DNA of 12,343 nt from Candidatus Heimdallarchaeota archaeon (GCA_030668825.1 DAOVET010000080.1:1-12343), one strand, 5' to 3'; shown: positions 1 through 12,184, counted from the stretch's first letter. A program made the numbers and translations. Notes: generated from the sequence alone by a model not told the origin.

Positions 1-405
1 CCAACAGGAATAGTAAAAGTACTAGTTGGAGAAAATTTAGTTGAGCCTTCAGCTGGTGAAAGAATTGATATTAAAGTTGAAATTAAGAGCGCAACATTTC
101 AAGTCTCAGCTAATGATACTGGAGGTAGTGGAGTATGGAAAATATCTTTAGAAACAGATGAAGGTAATTTAATAACTATTGAAGGAGATTCGGGTGAAAT
201 TACTTTACTATTCTTAGAATATGGAGAACATGACATCTTAATGACAGTTTATGATAGATCTGGTAACCTTTACATATTTACTTTCTCTGTAGACTTAATT
301 CCTGTCGAAACTCGTAGTGATTTTCCTTTACCATTCCCATTTGGTCTGACTACTTTAGCTGGTTTAATCGCTTTAGTTGCAATCTACTCAAAAAAGAAGA
401 AATAG
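1..405 (+). CDS. 3' end of an Ig-like/beta-sandwich cell-surface protein with a C-terminal membrane anchor (partial; absent from the ORF track)
   Basis: Frame +1 is open from base 1 to TAG at 403-405: PTGIVKVLVGENLVEPSAGERIDIKVEIKSATFQVSANDTGGSGVWKISLETDEGNLITIEGDSGEITLLFLEYGEHDILMTVYDRSGNLYIFTFSVDLIPVETRSDFPLPFPFGLTTLAGLIALVAIYSKKKK*. It has DxGGSGV and GEHxxxxxVYDxSGN motifs typical of bacterial/archaeal Ig-like repeats, then a Pro/Phe motif, a hydrophobic helix and KKKK. Confidence 0.85.
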   Translation, partial: PTGIVKVLVGENLVEPSAGERIDIKVEIKSATFQVSANDTGGSGVWKISLETDEGNLITIEGDSGEITLLFLEYGEHDILMTVYDRSGNLYIFTFSVDLIPVETRSDFPLPFPFGLTTLAGLIALVAIYSKKKK

Positions 406-1876: not shown

Positions 1877-4447
1877 TCATTGTTCCTTTAAGTAATAATC
1901 AGGAGATGTTACAAATCTATTCTCATCTTCTGCATCTCCTACTTCAAAGTCAGTGTAAATTTCTTCCATAATCTCCTTATCACTTATATCCGCCAGTATT
2001 TTACGCTTATCAACTGAAATAATTCTGCTTAATTCTATGGTTTTCGGATTGAATTTTTCCATCGTTTCTTTCATTTGGGTGAGATTTTCAATTTTACCTA
2101 TGAGATTCATAAAAGTTATTACAATATCAGGTCTGAGTGCAACTTGTGGAGCTATACTCAGTTGCTTGCCTATAGAAATAGCTAAGTTATCAATGAAATT
2201 CTGATCTTTTTCAAAGAGTGAAGCTGGATGATCACTGATGAAAGATGCAATTAATAGTAAATCAATTGATGTCCATAAATAAAGGAAGGGTTTTTCCATT
2301 AGTTGTAAATTATATACAATACCAATTTCTGTACCTTTTACATTTTCAACTACTTTACCTTCTAAATCAAAAATTTCATTTAACTCAAATGAAGGAGCAC
2401 CGTAACAAACCTGAATCATATTACTAATTAGTCTAACATTGCCCATTGAATATAACGAAAATTTAGAATTTTCTACTTTTTCAGGGAGAATTCCTGAGTT
2501 TTTCTCAATTAAAATCCTTTTCAACATTTCAATGTCATCTATTTCATCCTCAGTTCTGTCGTATTCTTGTGCAAAATCTTCTAGAATCTTTTTCTTTTTA
2601 TCTCTGAGGGATAACTTAGTTCGAGAAATGAGAGGCTGGTTGTAAACATCATAAAAGAAATCATAAATTATTCCAAAAAGATTAGAAGATACTTTTTTCT
2701 TCTCTACAACAAGGAAGTATCCTTTCATAGGATGATATATGACAGAATGAGCTTTACCAATTGCTTTTCCAAAAACATTTCTTGCAGAAATATCTTTATT
2801 TTCAGTAATATTATCATTAATCATGTTGCTTTCTGCTGGATTGAAATAAGGAAGTACATCACCATTTTGAATAATGTCTTGACTTTTTATTCTCATTTCT
2901 CTTGCCGTTTTCTCTATCTTCTCGATGGGAACAAATAGATAATTTTGAGGTTGAAGAATTACTTCAATTATTTCATCAGTTAATACTAAACCCTTAATCT
3001 TACAGTATTCTATAATTGCTTCTGGTATTAAATATGTAAAAGGCATTTGTGGTATATTTTTAGGTAGCTCATTTAACAAAAATTCTTTTTTCTCTCTTTC
3101 ATTTTCCAGTTCAGATTCTCCACTGATCGGTATTACGATATTATCATAAATCCTTCTGACCATAGAGAGCGATAACTCTTGTTGTTGCCTTAGAATTATA
3201 CCAAATTTCTCATTTAGTTGTCCAGGACCGACCACAAAACCAACTAAATCCTTTTGTTCATCAATAACAGGTTTGCCAGAATATCTCCAAAGCGCTTTAA
3301 GTTCTGATAACAGCTGATAATCTATTTCCCTACTTGATGCACTAGTTGCAACTGTTAATTGATTGCGAAATTGTAAGGCACTAATAATTTCACTATATTT
3401 TTGAATACGATTTTCTGTCTCAAGTGTTAGATCTTTGAAGTAAGGAGTTATTATTTCTTGATACTGTAGATGATCTCCATAAATTACATCCAAGGCATCC
3501 AAATCTTTAGCGTAATCGTTAATATCTTCATCTAATAGCTCTTCATAAATTTCGAGTTGTTTGATTTTTCTGGTTAATTCATAAGTTTGAGTTTCAGAAA
3601 TTTCATCTTTGTTGTTCTCCTTAAAAAGTTTAAAAGTTTCCTTTTCCTGTTGAATAATAACCTTCCATCTTAGAGTATCTTGAGCTGCTTTTCGGAGAAT
3701 AGGGCGATGTCTTAACACTCTTTCATTAATATCATAAATTATTCCCTTCAATTCTTTTTTATCGGTAACAAGACGTCTTAACCTATTGATGTTTTCACTC
3801 AATTCATTGTTAAAAAGGAGAAAATTGTTGTGAGTATTTTTGTATAAATGTTCTGTGCTAACAGAAAATAATAGCTCAGATAATTTGTAGAAGTGTTGAA
3901 AGATTTTATGTTGCTTGGCTTCAACTTCATTCTTTTTCCCCATATATTCCTGGTCATCAATTTTTCCAGACACATACTCTTGCTCTAAAGCCATTTCCTC
4001 TTCGAATGTCTTTGTGGCTGCTTTTATAGCCATATTCATAACATATCTTACTTTTAATTCTTCAATTTCAATGGGCGGAATTTCTTCAAGCTCAATAATG
4101 GGAATCCCGGTCGCTTTAGCGATTTCGTCTTCAGTTGGAACAAATACTTCTTCTATCTTAGTCTGAGGTTTACCAGTTTCAGTTTCAGCTGGTATTAATA
4201 TTTCCCCTCTATGAATTTGATGTATATCTTGTTCAACTTCAGGTAATTTTTGTTTAGTTTCTTCTAGTTCTTTCTTTTCCTCATCTGCAGTAATAGTTTT
4301 TGGAAGATTTGCTAGAAGTTCCTTATATTTGTTTTTTAAAGTTTGATAGGTTCTTCTATCAATTGAACCACGGATGTAACGTAAATCTAAATCTCTAATA
4401 AATCGGAGAATACGTCTTCTCTTAACGTTTACTTCATCGTCTAACAT
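1877..4447 (-). CDS. 856-aa protein: N-terminal CdvA/SHOCT-like helical repeats and coiled coil, three insert-containing PRC-barrel-like repeats, acidic tail
   Basis: Long ORF. Three segments begin with the PRC-like G-K-x-V-x-D/N-x-x-G-x-x-h-G-x-V pattern (aa ~389, ~549, ~695) and end with a PRC-like h-P/x-h-x-x-I-x-x-h...h-x-h strand pair. Two LxxxY[IV]xGxIDxxxYxxxKN motifs lie at aa 20-41 and 154-175. The CDS is near certain; the domain call is by eye. Confidence 0.7.
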   Translation of the reverse strand: MLDDEVNVKRRRILRFIRDLDLRYIRGSIDRRTYQTLKNKYKELLANLPKTITADEEKKELEETKQKLPEVEQDIHQIHRGEILIPAETETGKPQTKIEEVFVPTEDEIAKATGIPIIELEEIPPIEIEELKVRYVMNMAIKAATKTFEEEMALEQEYVSGKIDDQEYMGKKNEVEAKQHKIFQHFYKLSELLFSVSTEHLYKNTHNNFLLFNNELSENINRLRRLVTDKKELKGIIYDINERVLRHRPILRKAAQDTLRWKVIIQQEKETFKLFKENNKDEISETQTYELTRKIKQLEIYEELLDEDINDYAKDLDALDVIYGDHLQYQEIITPYFKDLTLETENRIQKYSEIISALQFRNQLTVATSASSREIDYQLLSELKALWRYSGKPVIDEQKDLVGFVVGPGQLNEKFGIILRQQQELSLSMVRRIYDNIVIPISGESELENEREKKEFLLNELPKNIPQMPFTYLIPEAIIEYCKIKGLVLTDEIIEVILQPQNYLFVPIEKIEKTAREMRIKSQDIIQNGDVLPYFNPAESNMINDNITENKDISARNVFGKAIGKAHSVIYHPMKGYFLVVEKKKVSSNLFGIIYDFFYDVYNQPLISRTKLSLRDKKKKILEDFAQEYDRTEDEIDDIEMLKRILIEKNSGILPEKVENSKFSLYSMGNVRLISNMIQVCYGAPSFELNEIFDLEGKVVENVKGTEIGIVYNLQLMEKPFLYLWTSIDLLLIASFISDHPASLFEKDQNFIDNLAISIGKQLSIAPQVALRPDIVITFMNLIGKIENLTQMKETMEKFNPKTIELSRIISVDKRKILADISDKEIMEEIYTDFEVGDAEDENRFVTSPDYYLKEQ

Positions 4448-4502
4448 TCTTAATAGAATTAAAGATTGTACGTATTCAAATATGTTCCTAAATTACCCAT
4501 TT

Positions 4503-4593
4503 GAAAAATATTTAAAATGCTAGGTATGAAACAATCTAGTAGTAGGAAAAAATATTTAATACTATAAGGATTAGATTAATTTAGAAATGGTGA
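4503..4593 (+). promoter_or_regulatory. Putative BRE/TATA element(s) and Shine-Dalgarno site for profilin
   Basis: GAAAAATATTTAA at 4503-4515 and GAAAAAATATTTAA at 4546-4559 (purine BRE followed by a TTTAAWA TATA-like box). GGTGA at 4589-4593, 7 nt before ATG 4601. Confidence 0.5.
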
Positions 4594-4600
4594 AAGAATC

Positions 4601-4960
4601 ATGAGTTTTCAAGACGATGTTGCAGTAGCTGCTCAAGAAGGAACCATTGGAGTGGTTTGGTTAATTGGGGATGATTTGAAATGTTATTATCAATATGGTG
4701 ACTGGGCTGTTGACCCTACAATACCTTTCGATTCATGGAAGAATCAAAAACCAAGTATTGATTTTGGTGGAGATTTAAAATTTACAGTGATCACAATGAC
4801 TCCTGAGAGATTGATCTCAACCAATATGGGAGGTCAAGGACATTTAATTGTTGCCCGTTGTCCAAAATGGGCTGGTTGTGTAATTTCTTGGTGTCCAGCA
4901 ACTATTCAGAAAGACATAGCTTATGCTACTACAGCAAGACTTGCAGCCAAAGTAGCCTAA
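4601..4960 (+). CDS. Asgard-type profilin (actin-monomer-binding protein)
   Basis: 119 aa. SIDFGGDLKFTVITMTPERLISTNMGGQGHLIVARCP matches the Asgard profilin core as I recall it from Loki profilins (S-h-x-h-x-G-h-K-Y/F-x-h-h-x-x-T-x-E-R-x-I-x-T-N-h-x-G-x-G-H-h-h-h). It also has the hGxD...QxxxW N-terminal half, a C-terminal helix and an upstream GGTGA SD. Confidence 0.85.
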   Translation: MSFQDDVAVAAQEGTIGVVWLIGDDLKCYYQYGDWAVDPTIPFDSWKNQKPSIDFGGDLKFTVITMTPERLISTNMGGQGHLIVARCPKWAGCVISWCPATIQKDIAYATTARLAAKVA

Positions 4961-4982: not shown

Positions 4983-5285
4983 TTGATTTCACATCCATCT
5001 GTTGAAATTAGGAATGATAAAATTTTTTTGTCAATTAGAGTTCATCCCAAATCTTCAGTAAATAGGATTGATGTTTCTGACTTTTCTATAGATGTCTATG
5101 TTAAAGAGCCAGCAGATAAAGGTAAAGCAAATAGATCAGTATTGAGTTGTTTAGCTAAAACTTTCAAAATTCCCTCCTCTTTTCTTTCTATTTCTCGAGG
5201 GTTAAAGTCTAGAAATAAAATAATTGTAATAAAGGATCAAAATAGTGATTTACTTTTGAAGAAAATAATTGGAAAGCATATTTAG
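4983..5285 (+). CDS. DUF167 / UPF0235 (YggU-like) protein
   Basis: LSIRVHPKSS, VYVKEPADKGKAN and ISRGLKSRNKIIVI match the family consensus (VxPxS, PPxxGKAN, GxxSRxK). TTG start 22 nt after the profilin stop, so probably co-transcribed. Confidence 0.9.
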   Translation: MISHPSVEIRNDKIFLSIRVHPKSSVNRIDVSDFSIDVYVKEPADKGKANRSVLSCLAKTFKIPSSFLSISRGLKSRNKIIVIKDQNSDLLLKKIIGKHI

Positions 5286-5848
5286 AGTTTCATCTTTTCA
5301 AATGCTCGGAGTAACTCATTTCTTTCATTAAACCGATTTTGTACGCTGCTACTCAGAGTCATAAGAGCAGTGATATTACCTTCCACTGCATCTAACATCA
5401 TCTCTTCTAGTTTGACTTTTACATCTGCTATTTTGTCTTTAAATTCTTCAGCGTTATCCAAAATATCTATTTCTAGCAAGTAGAGGATAGACAAATCAAT
5501 TCCATGTTCACCTTCAACTTCTTTTGCATCAAAAAATGTGCTATACTTATAATCTGTACTTGCTGTTTCTTTTCTCATATCTGAAACGATTTTCATGACT
5601 ATTCCTGCTGGCCCCCAGCTTGTTAATAGTTGTGAATGGATTAAAAGTTCATGCACTTGACTCATCATATCTCCGGTTTCCCTCATTAGTGTAAGTAATT
5701 TTGTTCTGAAAGCTACATCAGAATCTCTTCTTAGTTCTAATTCTTTGTATCCGTGATAGTTTTCAATATTCGCACTAAGAATTTTTAGAGCCTCACTGGG
5801 TTTCTTTGAAATTTCTTCTTCAGACAAATTCTTTTTCCTACCGAACAT
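5282..5848 (-). CDS. Conserved all-helical hypothetical protein
   Basis: 188-aa ORF co-oriented 22 nt after the ligase stop. Contains YHGYKELELRRDSD, DYKYSTFFD and LYLLEIDI, which resemble an uncharacterised family I recall with consensus PGFxGYxxxExRRxxD...YGYxGFFD...LYxxD. Confidence 0.75.
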   Translation of the reverse strand: MFGRKKNLSEEEISKKPSEALKILSANIENYHGYKELELRRDSDVAFRTKLLTLMRETGDMMSQVHELLIHSQLLTSWGPAGIVMKIVSDMRKETASTDYKYSTFFDAKEVEGEHGIDLSILYLLEIDILDNAEEFKDKIADVKVKLEEMMLDAVEGNITALMTLSSSVQNRFNERNELLRAFEKMKL

Positions 5849-7665: not shown

Positions 7666-9078
7666 TTATCTTTTCTTGCCTTTTTGCTCTTTCATTTCCA
7701 GAACAATTTCACTAATCAGATGAATAAGATTTGCACTTAAAACATCAAGACTATTTTTAAGTTCTCGAACAGCTTGAGTAAGATCATCAATTTTTTGCAT
7801 TTGTTCTGCAGGTTGAACCTTCTGCACTTCTGTATCTACTTGTAACTCCTGATCAAAAATCATGATATCTTTCTCAAATTTATCCATTTCAGGAGTTCTA
7901 GGTTCTGGTATCGAAGTAATGTCACCTCTAATTGCAGATTTAGCAGCTTTTTTGCGTTTTTCCTTCTTGCTTTTATCGCGTTCTTCTTTTTCACGAATTC
8001 TTTCCAAATAAGGCAGGATTTGTGCGTAATCAATTCCTTTTCTGCGAGCCATATCTGTCAGCAGAATGTCGCGATATCCAGGATCTTCGATTTTCAATTC
8101 ATCTATATCTTTCTCTAATTCCTGAATTATTGCAATTGATTCGTAAACATTTTTGTGAGGTGCTTTTATCTCTGGTTCTCTTTCAACAGTTTTTGTAGCT
8201 CTGATTTCTTCTTTTAATGACTTCATGGCTTTTATAACTTCAGCCTTGACAGTATCGGTTTCTCCTTTAGAGAGAGCTTTCTTAACCATATCAATTTTAC
8301 TCACAGATTCAAAGGGTTCTTCCCTTGCTTTTTCTTTAACATCAATTTTTTGTACGGTTTCTGCTATATCTTCTTCTGCTTCTTCTGCAAGTTCTTCATC
8401 TTGTTTTGTAAATGCTGGCGGAACTGATACATATGTGAATAGGTTTTTAGCAAGTTTAGAATTATCTCTTAATTTAATCCCTGATTTGGAATCAGATAAC
8501 AATAGGTATGAACCACATACAAAAACTGTTCCCAAACCATAAGACGATATACACATAACAGCAGAGCTTGGTGGATCGCTTGTTTTTTTTGTCCTAGCTA
8601 GTTCTTCTACTCCTTCTTTGAGATGCAGGGAGCAACTGGAAACCATTGTTATTTCGCTAAGACCTTCAGTAATTGGATGCTTATAGAATTTTGAAACAAT
8701 TATATTGCTTTCTAATTCTAAATCAAAGTTTTGGTAATCAAAGATTTGATTAGCTACAATTTCCACATTAAAGTGTTTGAGTAGTGTGTTCAGATTAGTA
8801 TTTAATCCTTTATCTCCTCCTGCATTTGTGAAAACTGCTAGTGCTCCTCCCTCATCAACAAATCTTAGCAATGCTTTAACTTCGTGACCCATAATCTTTG
8901 AACCATCGGGACACAAGAAAACAAAGATGTCAAATTTGGAAATGTTTGAATATTTTATCGGATATGAATCATGCTTACTTATTTCATGTCCTTCCTCTTC
9001 TAGTATGTTTGCTAGTTTCTGAAAATTCTCAAAAATTTTTCCTCTCTCTTTTTGAGTTTCATCGAAAAGTATTTTCAT
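7666..9078 (-). CDS. GIFT-domain (IFT52/GldG-like, class I glutamine amidotransferase-like fold) protein with charged helical and coiled-coil C-terminal half
   Basis: aa ~1-218: ILFDETQKE, FVDEGGALAVFTNAGGDKGLNTNLNTLLKHFNV, HPITEG, GTVFVCGSYLLLSD...DNSKLAKNLFTYV. No signal peptide or TM segment. GGTGA SD at 9083-9087 (minus strand). Confidence 0.75.
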   Translation of the reverse strand: MKILFDETQKERGKIFENFQKLANILEEEGHEISKHDSYPIKYSNISKFDIFVFLCPDGSKIMGHEVKALLRFVDEGGALAVFTNAGGDKGLNTNLNTLLKHFNVEIVANQIFDYQNFDLELESNIIVSKFYKHPITEGLSEITMVSSCSLHLKEGVEELARTKKTSDPPSSAVMCISSYGLGTVFVCGSYLLLSDSKSGIKLRDNSKLAKNLFTYVSVPPAFTKQDEELAEEAEEDIAETVQKIDVKEKAREEPFESVSKIDMVKKALSKGETDTVKAEVIKAMKSLKEEIRATKTVEREPEIKAPHKNVYESIAIIQELEKDIDELKIEDPGYRDILLTDMARRKGIDYAQILPYLERIREKEERDKSKKEKRKKAAKSAIRGDITSIPEPRTPEMDKFEKDIMIFDQELQVDTEVQKVQPAEQMQKIDDLTQAVRELKNSLDVLSANLIHLISEIVLEMKEQKGKKR

Positions 9079-9282: not shown

Positions 9283-10137
9283 ATGTCTAGTATTGATTTT
9301 GGAAAACTAAAGGAAATGGCTTCAGCTAGATTGGATATAATAATTCTTCATTCTCAAAAAGGTGGTCCTGGTAAAACAACTCTATCATGTAACATAGCTT
9401 ATGAACTTGCTAGAAGAGGGAATAAAACCATTTTGGTAGATTTAGATATAGCACAGCCAACAATTCAGCACATCTTTAAAATTCCAGATAAGAAGATCAA
9501 ACATACCATAAATGATATTCTTATGGGGAAAAAGAAAGTCAGTGAAGATGTAGTTCTTGAGACAAAGAATCCTAATTTACATATAATTGTAGCAAAGGAA
9601 AATGTCGAGTATGGTGAAGGCTTGCTTTCACTTCTTGAAGACATTCAACAGTACTCTTTCTTTGCTCTACATGAAATGACAAAATTTCTCAAAAGAATGG
9701 GATTTAGATACGTTGTTTATGATTTAGCCCCTGGTTACAGAATGGAGTCAGTTAATGCTGCTGCTATAGCTGATGCTCGAATTTTTGTAATCAGACCTTC
9801 CACTTTCAGCTTTGAAGGAGCAAAACAGATGTTAAGAGACATATACAAAAAATTAGACATAAGATCTCTTAGCTTCTTCGTATTTAATCAATTACCTCCA
9901 AAATTGAAAGATGAAAATCAGAAATTATTGGAAGAATGGAAAGACAAACTTATAAAAATCTATAAACCGGATAAAATCACTTTTCTAGATTTCTTGCCAA
10001 TATCATTCGATGTCATGGAATTGGGGATAAAAGGAGAGTATATCTTTCCTGAAGATTCAATTCTTTATGAAAAACTATCTGAAATGGTAGACAAAGTAAT
10101 TCAAGATTTAGACGAAATGAAGAAAAATAAGGTTTAA
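9283..10137 (+). CDS. MinD/ParA-family (deviant Walker A) ATPase
   Basis: SQKGGPGKTT (KGGxGKT), LVDLDIAQP (switch I), VVYDLAPG (Walker B), VFNQ. GGTGA SD at 9274-9278. Confidence 0.92.
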   Translation: MSSIDFGKLKEMASARLDIIILHSQKGGPGKTTLSCNIAYELARRGNKTILVDLDIAQPTIQHIFKIPDKKIKHTINDILMGKKKVSEDVVLETKNPNLHIIVAKENVEYGEGLLSLLEDIQQYSFFALHEMTKFLKRMGFRYVVYDLAPGYRMESVNAAAIADARIFVIRPSTFSFEGAKQMLRDIYKKLDIRSLSFFVFNQLPPKLKDENQKLLEEWKDKLIKIYKPDKITFLDFLPISFDVMELGIKGEYIFPEDSILYEKLSEMVDKVIQDLDEMKKNKV

Positions 10138-10209: not shown

Positions 10210-11193
10210 ATGAGCCTAATCAAGAAATTTCAATGTCCTCATTGCAATGCTCCAATGGATGTTAATCCTGAGGACGCAATTTTCAACTGTGTATCTTGTG
10301 GACAAGCAGTTCTCGCGGATGGTTCTAAATTTGATAATCATTACATCCTAAGGAATACGCTCAACCAGAAAAAGATACACGATATTGTGAAGGAGTTTAT
10401 TAGGAAAAAAGGGTTCATGAGGGGAATTAAAGGTTATAAGATTACAAACATTACCCCAACATTGATACCTTTTTGGGTTGTAACTTCTGATGCGTATACC
10501 CATTTTGTAGGATACCTCAAATACACAGAAACAAGAACTAGAACAGTAGGTACTGGAAAAAATAGACGAACAGTAACTGAAAGCGTTACAGTCTACCGAC
10601 CAATCGACAGAGAAATAAGAGAAAAGCGTGCAGATGTTTTACTTGGGAGGAGAGGAAGTTCAATTTATGGATATGATAAAGTAAAAAATATCGTGAGAGC
10701 AGAGTTTCCAAATGCAGTTCAATTTAACTATGATCAATTACTGGCTGATGAAAAAGAATTCAACTATCTTTCATCAGAAATAGACTTAGATGCAGCAAAT
10801 CAGCTAGGTAAAACTATTGTTTTCGATAATCATAGAGCTCAAGCTGAGAGAGCATGCACTAAAGTTTTCGATTGCGCTACACAATTAACTTACTCTGGTA
10901 CTTATTTCTTACATGCTCCAGTTTGGCAGATAGAATATGAGTTCAAGGGAGAAACCTACAGAATAGCTATTTTAGGTAGTTCTGGAAAAATAATAATAGG
11001 CGAAATTCCCGTTACAACAATTTTCAGAATTATTTTTCTCTCGCTAACAGTACTAATTCTAGGAGGAGCTGGAGTTTTGAGTTACTTCTTCCAAACTGCA
11101 GTTTATGTGCCGATAATAGCGGGAATTGTTGCAGCAGCAGTAGGATTCTTCACGCTTAAGAATACCTTCAAACCTAAATCGGTGGTGGACTAA
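10210..11193 (+). CDS. Zn-ribbon protein with two C-terminal TM helices (YdjG-like), paralog 1
   Basis: CPHC...CVSC at the N-terminus, IPFW, HAPVWQIEYEFKGETYRIAILGSSGKIIIGEIP, then two hydrophobic helices and a basic tail. Confidence 0.75.
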   Translation: MSLIKKFQCPHCNAPMDVNPEDAIFNCVSCGQAVLADGSKFDNHYILRNTLNQKKIHDIVKEFIRKKGFMRGIKGYKITNITPTLIPFWVVTSDAYTHFVGYLKYTETRTRTVGTGKNRRTVTESVTVYRPIDREIREKRADVLLGRRGSSIYGYDKVKNIVRAEFPNAVQFNYDQLLADEKEFNYLSSEIDLDAANQLGKTIVFDNHRAQAERACTKVFDCATQLTYSGTYFLHAPVWQIEYEFKGETYRIAILGSSGKIIIGEIPVTTIFRIIFLSLTVLILGGAGVLSYFFQTAVYVPIIAGIVAAAVGFFTLKNTFKPKSVVD

Positions 11194-11194
11194 A

Positions 11195-12184
11195 ATGAAT
11201 GTAAGATCAATAATGTGCCCAAATTGTGCTGCACCTTTAGAATTAGAAGCTACACAATCACATGTTACATGTCCATATTGTTCTGTAACAAGTGAACTGA
11301 AGAAAGTAACTGATCTGATTGAACATTATATGTTACCAGTTGTTTATGATGTTGAGCAAATTAGAACTGAACTTGTAGGTGACATACTTAAATATCCAGG
11401 TACTCCTGAAGATTTGCATAAATCATTAAAAATTACTAAATTAGACCTTAAATTCTACCCCTATTTCATTGTAACTGTTCACCTCCGAACAGAATACAAA
11501 GGAAATGGTGAATATGCTACATTTAGCAGTCGGTACAAATCCGGATATAGACGTATCAGTACTCATCTGAAACCTGAACAAGGGGTATTTGATGATACTA
11601 GAGAGTTCATAATATATGCAGCTGAAGAAGCACAAAATGATTTAATCAACTTTGAAATATCCACCAGAGGTAAAAGGTACTTCCAAGCACTCGAGGCAGA
11701 GAAAGTTAAAGCTGATGTAGTTCCTAGTATTTTCGATTTAGATCAAGCTAAGAATGAAGCTACACACTCAATGAGAGAGATCCATAAAGGATTGATGCTC
11801 AAAGAATTAGCTCAAATTCTTGAAGTTAGAGATCAGCCAGAAATAAAAGGTGTTTATTTGTTGCACATTCCATTCTATTTCATTGAATTTGAAGCAGCTG
11901 GAAAGAAACACAATGCTACATTAGATGGGGCAACTGGTAGGACTGTCCTAACCGATGTCCCCCGAGAAACATCCTATTGGATACAAGTTGGAGTTCTAAC
12001 TACTATTTTCGCAGCTGTAGGATTAGCTGGTATTTATCTAGCGGTTCAGAGTGCCTATACTGCTTATTTTGGAATTTTCGGTGCAATTGCCGGTCTCATT
12101 CTTGCTGGTAGAACGTTACAACTTGGACTTAAATCTAGACATAGAGAAACACAAAGGTCAAAGAAAAGGAGATTCAAGAGATAG
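11195..12184 (+). CDS. Zn-ribbon protein with two C-terminal TM helices (YdjG-like), paralog 2
   Basis: CPNC...CPYC, PEDL, FYPYF, HIPFYFIEFEAAGKKHNATLDGATGRTVLTDVP, two TM helices and a very basic tail (RSKKRRFKR). Starts 1 nt after the paralog 1 stop (TAAaATG). Confidence 0.75.
   Translation: MNVRSIMCPNCAAPLELEATQSHVTCPYCSVTSELKKVTDLIEHYMLPVVYDVEQIRTELVGDILKYPGTPEDLHKSLKITKLDLKFYPYFIVTVHLRTEYKGNGEYATFSSRYKSGYRRISTHLKPEQGVFDDTREFIIYAAEEAQNDLINFEISTRGKRYFQALEAEKVKADVVPSIFDLDQAKNEATHSMREIHKGLMLKELAQILEVRDQPEIKGVYLLHIPFYFIEFEAAGKKHNATLDGATGRTVLTDVPRETSYWIQVGVLTTIFAAVGLAGIYLAVQSAYTAYFGIFGAIAGLILAGRTLQLGLKSRHRETQRSKKRRFKR

Follow-up and report, generated by a model that had tools for sequence, protein, structure and literature searches.

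We analysed a 12,343-nucleotide (nt) stretch of DNA from Candidatus Heimdallarchaeota archaeon (GCA_030668825.1 DAOVET010000080.1:1-12343), referred to below in its full length as the window, in which a gene on the minus strand encodes a protein of 856 amino acids (aa), P0001. A sequence-only reading of the window had noticed three repeats in the C-terminal half of this protein and had likened them to PRC barrels, each split by a helical insert. PRC-barrel proteins have recently been recognised as core components of both archaeal division machineries, CdvA acting with ESCRT-III and CdpB with SepF and FtsZ. We consider the protein to be a candidate cytoskeleton or cell-division scaffold, because it carries split PRC-type barrels and because its gene usually lies beside a profilin gene. 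The segments of the gene are listed below, where A1 denotes an alignment of 40 full-length relatives and pLDDT the predicted local distance difference test score.

1877..4447, minus strand: whole gene, 856 aa and stop codon (open reading frame list, translation)
4298..4447, minus strand: aa 1-50, conserved basic N-terminal helical hairpin, KRRRILRFIRDLDLRYIRGSIDRRTYQTLKNKY; columns R12-Y41 are nearly invariant in A1
4115..4297, minus strand: aa 51-111, acidic linker, poorly conserved (consensus mostly 'x') and probably disordered (pLDDT <50)
3374..4114, minus strand: aa 112-358, long-helix bundle, coiled-coil-like domain
2885..3283, minus strand: unit R1, aa 389-521, PRC-barrel-like strands 393-421 and 503-520 flanking an insert
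2957..3169, minus strand: helical insert of R1, aa 427-497, four helices (427-442, 450-464, 475-484, 491-497)
2408..2803, minus strand: unit R2, aa 549-680, PRC-barrel-like strands 554-582 and 663-680 flanking an insert
2468..2686, minus strand: helical insert of R2, aa 588-660 (helices 588-598, 614-629, 633-636, 639-648, 655-660)
1988..2365, minus strand: unit R3, aa 695-820, PRC-barrel-like strands 699-725 and 802-819 flanking an insert
2054..2260, minus strand: helical insert of R3, aa 730-798 (helices 730-735, 741-747, 751-763, 767-770, 773-782, 789-798)
1880..1918, minus strand: aa 844-856, conserved C-terminal peptide RFVTSPDYYLKEQ, candidate docking motif (conservation, model)

In the AlphaFold2 model of the whole protein, the helices of the N-terminal hairpin span residues 3-25 and 31-46 (pLDDT 64-76), and the linker falls below 50 at residues 51-61 and 68-111. 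The C-terminal peptide follows an acidic stretch of low confidence (pLDDT <50 at 833-841 and 848-856). Within the peptide V846, P849, and L853 are invariant among the 40 sequences of A1, and S848, D850, and Y851 are nearly so; the last 13 residues thus have the usual look of a docking peptide and are a candidate for that role. Pfam and NCBIfam searches assigned the 856-aa protein to no family, the sole Pfam match being a meaningless one to SLATT_6 (E 0.77). Among the 40 homologues, DUF2589 (10/40) and DUF5741 (8/40) were commoner weak Pfam matches than PRC; all were below the cut-offs, and they fell in the N-terminal helices in those cases where the position was visible. Every source name shown among the relatives was "hypothetical protein", as the sequence-only reading had expected.

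Fold and internal repeats

The predicted models support well the view that the C-terminal half (aa ~385-822) comprises three tandem units, each forming a PRC-barrel-like six-stranded barrel in which a ~70-residue helical subdomain would come between strands 3 and 4. The whole-protein model, computed with A1, had a mean pLDDT of 77.3, and its C-terminal half scored 74-92 per ten-residue block apart from one block at 50. A second AlphaFold model of aa 380-690 with 45 sequences reached a pLDDT of 89.5 and a predicted template modelling score of 0.84. DSSP assignments on the two models gave the same order in each unit: a short strand, a long two-stranded hairpin, four to six helices, and three short strands. 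In these models the six strands make up an antiparallel sheet with a strong bend, which overlays known PRC-barrel structures across most of the domain. The units differ from the contiguous PRC domain of ~70-80 residues by the ~70 helical residues between strands 3 and 4.

Structural searches covered all three units. Foldseek returned nothing at E ≤1e-3; its top rows were CdpB1/B2 (8qzo) with E values of 5e-3 to 4.7e-2, followed by RimM. In a second structural search the first 21 rows were all PRC-type proteins. PRC barrels stood at the top of the structural lists for all three units, with 70-71 of the 75-77 PRC-domain residues covered. Both halves of the barrel are matched, since every PRC structural alignment spans the insert. 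For each unit the best matches among solved structures are PRC barrels aligned across the insert, in agreement with the sequence-only reading.

At the sequence level the likeness is faint. P0001 had no PF05239 match even at E ≤10, which bears out the expectation that the inserts hide the protein from standard PRC hidden Markov models (HMMs). Against the PF05239 gathering score of 21.2 bits, the family appeared weakly in five of the 40 homologues (best E 0.0089), and the distant homologue P0054 reached 13 bits (E 0.11). Comparison by hhalign with 10 Asgard PRC proteins gave P values of 0.003-0.007 for R3, 0.014 for the R1 core (58 columns), and 0.076 for the R2 core; the matches were all in register and none was significant. 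A PDB sequence search with the family profile found no PRC entry, its only matches being ATP synthase subunit j (E 2.2) and myosin VIIa (E 0.25). In the ESM Atlas, aa 380-856 retrieved PRC-barrel clusters at 0.86-0.87, which lies below the 0.9 line and is a lead only. Thus, the proposed fold is upheld by models and structural matches, and homology to PRC barrels is not established by sequence (P 0.003-0.08). Such homology is likely but not proven.

All eight peptides quoted in the sequence-only reading lie where it had placed them (residues 389-406, 549-571, 695-716, 503-521, 663-680, 801-820, 472-486, and 770-784), and residues 389-820 correspond to nt 3283..1988 as it had given. The repeat was at chance level within the single sequence: Smith-Waterman scores of the unit pairs against 300 shuffles gave z values of -0.17, -0.08, and 0.71, BLASTP between units gave a best E of 0.19-0.84, and a BLAST of the protein against itself found the identity match alone. 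Profile-profile comparison with homologues did reveal it. When four distant relatives were added to A1 (44 sequences), hhalign aligned R1 with R2 over 127 columns, from the first to the last strand including the insert (probability 93.5%, E 2.2e-7), and it aligned R1 with R3 (E 0.015, 89 columns) and R2 with R3 (E 0.0066, 83 columns) in register. With the 40 close homologues of A1 alone the values were weaker (R1-R2 4e-4, R1-R3 0.22, R2-R3 0.13). Moreover, single-unit HMMs recovered the order R1-R2-R3 in representatives of five families (f1, f6, f9, f22, and f5; f1 is the GTDB family of the window's genome), with weak cross-matches between units, again in register. These profile matches and the conserved order of the unit HMMs indicate that the three units are homologous by sequence comparison, R3 being the most divergent, and the proposed repeat is genuine, although it could not be demonstrated from a single sequence.

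Because the insert itself aligns between units, their ancestor would already have borne it, and the profiles indicate that the units arose by internal duplication of an insert-bearing barrel. A fusion of the separate PRC paralogues CdpB1, CdpB2, and CdpB3 was also considered, and it is rejected because R1 and R2 have the insert in common (E 2.2e-7).

Other multi-barrel proteins are known. Duplicated PRC proteins are widespread, and multi-PRC and PRC-plus-coiled-coil proteins occur, according to the available text of Zhao et al. Other Asgards likewise have tandem double-PRC proteins (~225-250 aa) with several PRC barrels per chain, and f11 genomes contain two PF05239 matches in one open reading frame (e.g., G191:C239 and G269:C74); these proteins are, however, short, insert-free, detected by Pfam, and devoid of a long helical N-terminal half. 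The novelty lies in a large, profilin-linked protein, missed by family models, in which a PRC-type barrel is interrupted by an entire helical subdomain and occurs three times. The sequence-only reading did not recognise the architecture from earlier work, and the available text of the literature on PRC barrels and on Asgards gives no such description; supplementary tables (Zhao et al. Tables S1 and S2, Nussbaum et al. source data) might list the family. Within the same literature no single paper was found to treat Asgard, profilin, and PRC together.

Distribution and the profilin neighbour

A word-based search at E ≤1e-3 found 42 homologues, the lowest identity being 39% across the C-terminal half; they are labelled Heimdallarchaeota or Heimdallarchaeaceae, with one Thorarchaeota label. 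An exhaustive profile search of 1.84 billion representatives returned only 15 proteins at E ≤1e-3, five of which are distant (E 3e-13 to 7e-4), contain the triple module, and come from sources named Asgard group, Promethearchaeota, or Heimdallarchaeota. We also surveyed the phylum in a sample of 301 genomes. The close family occurred in 27 of the 28 f1 genomes and in the window's own genome (G000, 90.6% complete), and in 0/272 others; the gene is single copy in 27/28 of the f1 genomes. A profile of the distant members placed the superfamily in 72/301 genomes (f1 23/28, f5 20/21, f6 11/11, f7 2/2, f9 2/2, f15 1/1, f21 5/5, f22 1/1, and f24 6/7). The same profile did not find it in f2-f4, the sister families of f1 in the same order (0/15), or in f11 (0/76), f14 (0/68), and f17 (0/19). 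The survey of Asgard genomes that the sequence-only reading had proposed thus indicates a family that the sequence searches detect in Asgards only, and in just a part of them.

Near-identical DNA to window positions 1877-4960 (at least half of the sampled words) was found in 14 public runs, all of them labelled as cold-seep or marine-sediment metagenomes; no RNA run was among the 24 runs listed for this interval.

The gene has a divergent neighbour on the opposite strand:

4601..4960, plus strand: Asgard profilin, 119 aa (phmmer against PDB)

The phmmer matches were 5zza_P (E 5.9e-11) and the entries named Profilin 7pbh_A (E 5.6e-6) and 6yrr_A (E 0.015); a Pfam search of the 119-aa protein gave no match. 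A single-sequence search found it to be the sole copy in the genome. The adjacency was examined in 38 genomes, and profilin adjoined the triple-barrel gene in 16/18 genomes of f1, 10/10 of f6, 2/2 of f9, 1/1 of f15, and 1/1 of f22, with gaps of 58-369 nt between the two genes. In f1 the pairing spans four of the five genera examined; the fifth genus is represented by one genome, whose contig stops 795 nt upstream of the gene. The relative orientation varies: the two genes diverge in f1, converge in f6, f15, and f22, and point the same way in f9, and the other flanking genes in f6 and f15 are unrelated to those of f1.

The f6 orthologues are ~1,000-1,070 aa long (L091:8589-11657; also L067 and L068) and have a long disordered linker before R1. 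Runs of 3-8 prolines occur in this linker in six of the nine f6 orthologues, with up to six runs per protein. A Heimdall profilin and a Thor profilin bound poly-proline weakly in vitro, and the available text of Survery et al. (PMC8410842) names no physiological ligand.

Candidate role and competing explanations

We tentatively favour, as a quite possible reading, a real, conserved, Asgard-specific structural protein that acts as a self-associating scaffold or adaptor; among partner systems, profilin/actin has the strongest backing from genome context. Homotypic contacts would come from the helical bundle and the PRC barrels, by analogy with the filaments of CdvA and the polymers of CdpB, and surfaces for partner binding would lie on the three inserts and the C-terminal peptide. 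Proteins that combine PRC and coiled coil do polymerise, as described in the available text on CdvA filaments (10.1101/2025.09.15.676241) and CdpB polymers (10.1101/2023.03.28.534543). We infer self-assembly, any partner, and any cellular role from fold, architecture, and gene context, and the genome context favours profilin at least as much as division.

Several observations weigh against this scaffold reading. The PRC homology is marginal at the sequence level (PF05239 below the cut-off in 5/40 homologues; hhalign P 0.003-0.076), and no partner is backed by experiment or interaction prediction; a complex prediction of aa 380-856 with SepF of the same genome gave neither support nor counter-evidence. 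One f1 genome has a membrane protein upstream instead of profilin, and no profilin lies nearby in 6/6 f5 loci (shorter flank at least 1.8 kb, most >5 kb). Furthermore, a wider block of genes is common to f1, f9, and f22 (arginase-family gene, profilin, DUF167, the 188-aa protein p188, DNA ligase, and GIFT-domain protein); inherited synteny therefore contributes to the adjacency, part of which may reflect this rather than functional coupling. Finally, the window protein has no poly-proline run, and a single PPP occurs in just 3/18 f1 proteins.

A cell-division adaptor, the Heimdallarchaeaceae counterpart of CdpB/CdvA, is a less probable and on balance rather unlikely explanation. Its barrels would organise SepF/FtsZ or ESCRT-III, and its C-terminal peptide would act like the ESCRT-III-binding tail of CdvA. 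According to the available text of the relevant studies (10.1101/2023.03.28.534520, 10.1101/2023.03.28.534543), every archaeal PRC-barrel protein whose function has been studied acts in division. The combination of PRC, helical coiled coil, and conserved terminal peptide recalls CdvA, which was the top VIA row for the helical domain and has an N-terminal PRC barrel, a three-helix coiled coil, and a C-terminal ESCRT-III-binding peptide (10.1101/2025.09.15.676241, available text). Relative to CdvA of Sulfolobales (9s9g, 9s9i), however, the domain order is reversed: the Asgard protein begins with its helices and continues with three barrels, where CdvA has one, and a ~70-residue insert splits each of them. 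The peptide that comes last is unrelated in sequence as far as could be judged, and no sequence similarity between the two proteins is detectable. It also comes from Asgards, which possess FtsZ and SepF.

The distribution of canonical PRC genes bears on the same explanation. The window's genome contains one SepF, two FtsZ-like, and two Snf7 (ESCRT-III) genes, yet a PF05239 search of it gave no match. PF05239 was found in 138 of the 301 sampled genomes but in 0/28 of f1, while the sister families that lack the triple-barrel family carry it (10/11, 1/1, and 1/3). Taken alone, this pattern suggests a replacement of canonical PRC in f1. Outside f1 the pattern fails, because canonical PRC and the triple-barrel family occur as separate genes in the same families (11/11 each in f6, 6/7 each in f24), and many Asgard families have neither. 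The idea that the triple protein replaces canonical CdpB is weakened by this coexistence, and since f6 and f24 carry both kinds, the triple-barrel protein is not simply a CdpB substitute. In addition, the ftsZ, sepF, and ESCRT genes lie on other contigs, not beside the triple-barrel gene. CdpB1, CdpB2, and CdpB3 (8qzo, 8onw) are small, have a contiguous barrel, and are detected by PF05239, whereas the Asgard protein is no small stand-alone PRC protein: it has 856 aa, inserts, a 380-aa helical N-terminal half, and an internal duplication, and it escapes PF05239. The split-barrel family explains why PF05239 surveys detect no PRC protein in f1.

It is unlikely, to a greater degree, that the units are small SH3-like β-barrels that resemble PRC by analogy, in a lineage-specific repeat protein outside the PRC superfamily. 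Such an origin would account for the lack of a significant PRC match by any sequence method (Pfam below the cut-off, the PDB profile search without PRC, hhalign P at least 0.003). PRC barrels nonetheless lead every structural list for all three units with near-complete domain coverage, the weak sequence alignments to PRC are all in the correct register, and the language-model search independently lists PRC-barrel clusters, as a lead only.

To return to the profilin/actin scaffold, a bolder version of it is improbable in our judgement: the family would be the missing Asgard actin-assembly factor, a functional analogue and not a homologue of formin or Ena/VASP. Here the helical domain would oligomerise the protein, and profilin-actin, with profilin supplied by the neighbouring gene, would be caught by the flexible linker, which is rich in poly-proline in f6 orthologues, or by another motif. 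The three barrels with their inserts would grip the filament or anchor it at a membrane site. Formins and Ena/VASP are named as filament polymerases of the eukaryotic migration machinery in the available text on that subject. The comparison goes no further than "works like", as Pfam found no FH2 or EVH1/EVH2 domain in the window protein. If true, this version would fill an apparent gap in Asgard genomes, which seem to have no actin polymerase or organiser.

A role in association with RNA or the ribosome, comparable to that of RimM with its C-terminal PRC barrel, is very improbable: although RimM barrels gave the highest Z for R1 and R3 and genes for translation or RNA processing are often found close to PRC genes (Zhao et al., available text), the protein has no RimM N-terminal domain and no RNA-binding family in Pfam and NCBIfam, no translation genes are among its neighbours, the fold match alone carries no functional information, and RimM (2dyi, 3a1p, 2f1l, 7cq1) has a single insert-free barrel, a different N-terminal domain, and a bacterial ribosome-maturation context.

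The family extends the PRC fold to a large, previously unrecognised architecture that is Asgard-restricted in the searches made and includes the class of the window's lineage, and it provides a concrete candidate partner for Asgard profilin. Should the protein prove to organise actin or the divisome, it would be of direct relevance to the workings of the cytoskeleton before eukaryotes. Should it be only a lineage-specific scaffold, it would still be a rare case of a small barrel domain that tolerates a whole inserted subdomain, in three copies.

Other genes in the window

The remaining annotated features are as follows.

1-405, plus strand: 3' end of a gene whose product ends ...PLPFPFGLTTLAGLIALVAIYSKKKK
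5282-5848, minus strand: conserved 188-aa protein (p188), no Pfam or PDB match
7666-9078, minus strand: GIFT-domain protein, 470 aa, IFT52-type (PF23355, 40.1 bits against a cut-off of 27.2)
9283-10137, plus strand: ParA/MinD-type ATPase, followed by two paralogous proteins at 10210-11193 and 11195-12184, plus strand

In f5 (L077:6936-7343, L078:5741-6034, L080:7043-7324), a DUF167 (YggU) homologue, not profilin, lies directly downstream of the triple-barrel gene and overlaps its end; in f1 and f22, DUF167 comes after profilin. The protein p188 is encoded close to the triple-barrel gene in f1, f9, and f5, and in the ESM Atlas it matched only unnamed "hypothetical" clusters of archaea and bacteria (0.92-0.93). 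The 470-aa protein has an N-terminal GIFT domain followed by a long charged helical tail, with homologues in the same block in f1, f9, and f22. The two paralogues beside the ATPase begin with a zinc-ribbon-like CxxC...CxxC pattern and end in hydrophobic helices, and the pair is conserved in four f1 genera. The ...PLPFPFGLTTLAGLIALVAIYSKKKK ending of the product of 1-405 resembles a PGF-CTERM/archaeosortase-type sorting signal.

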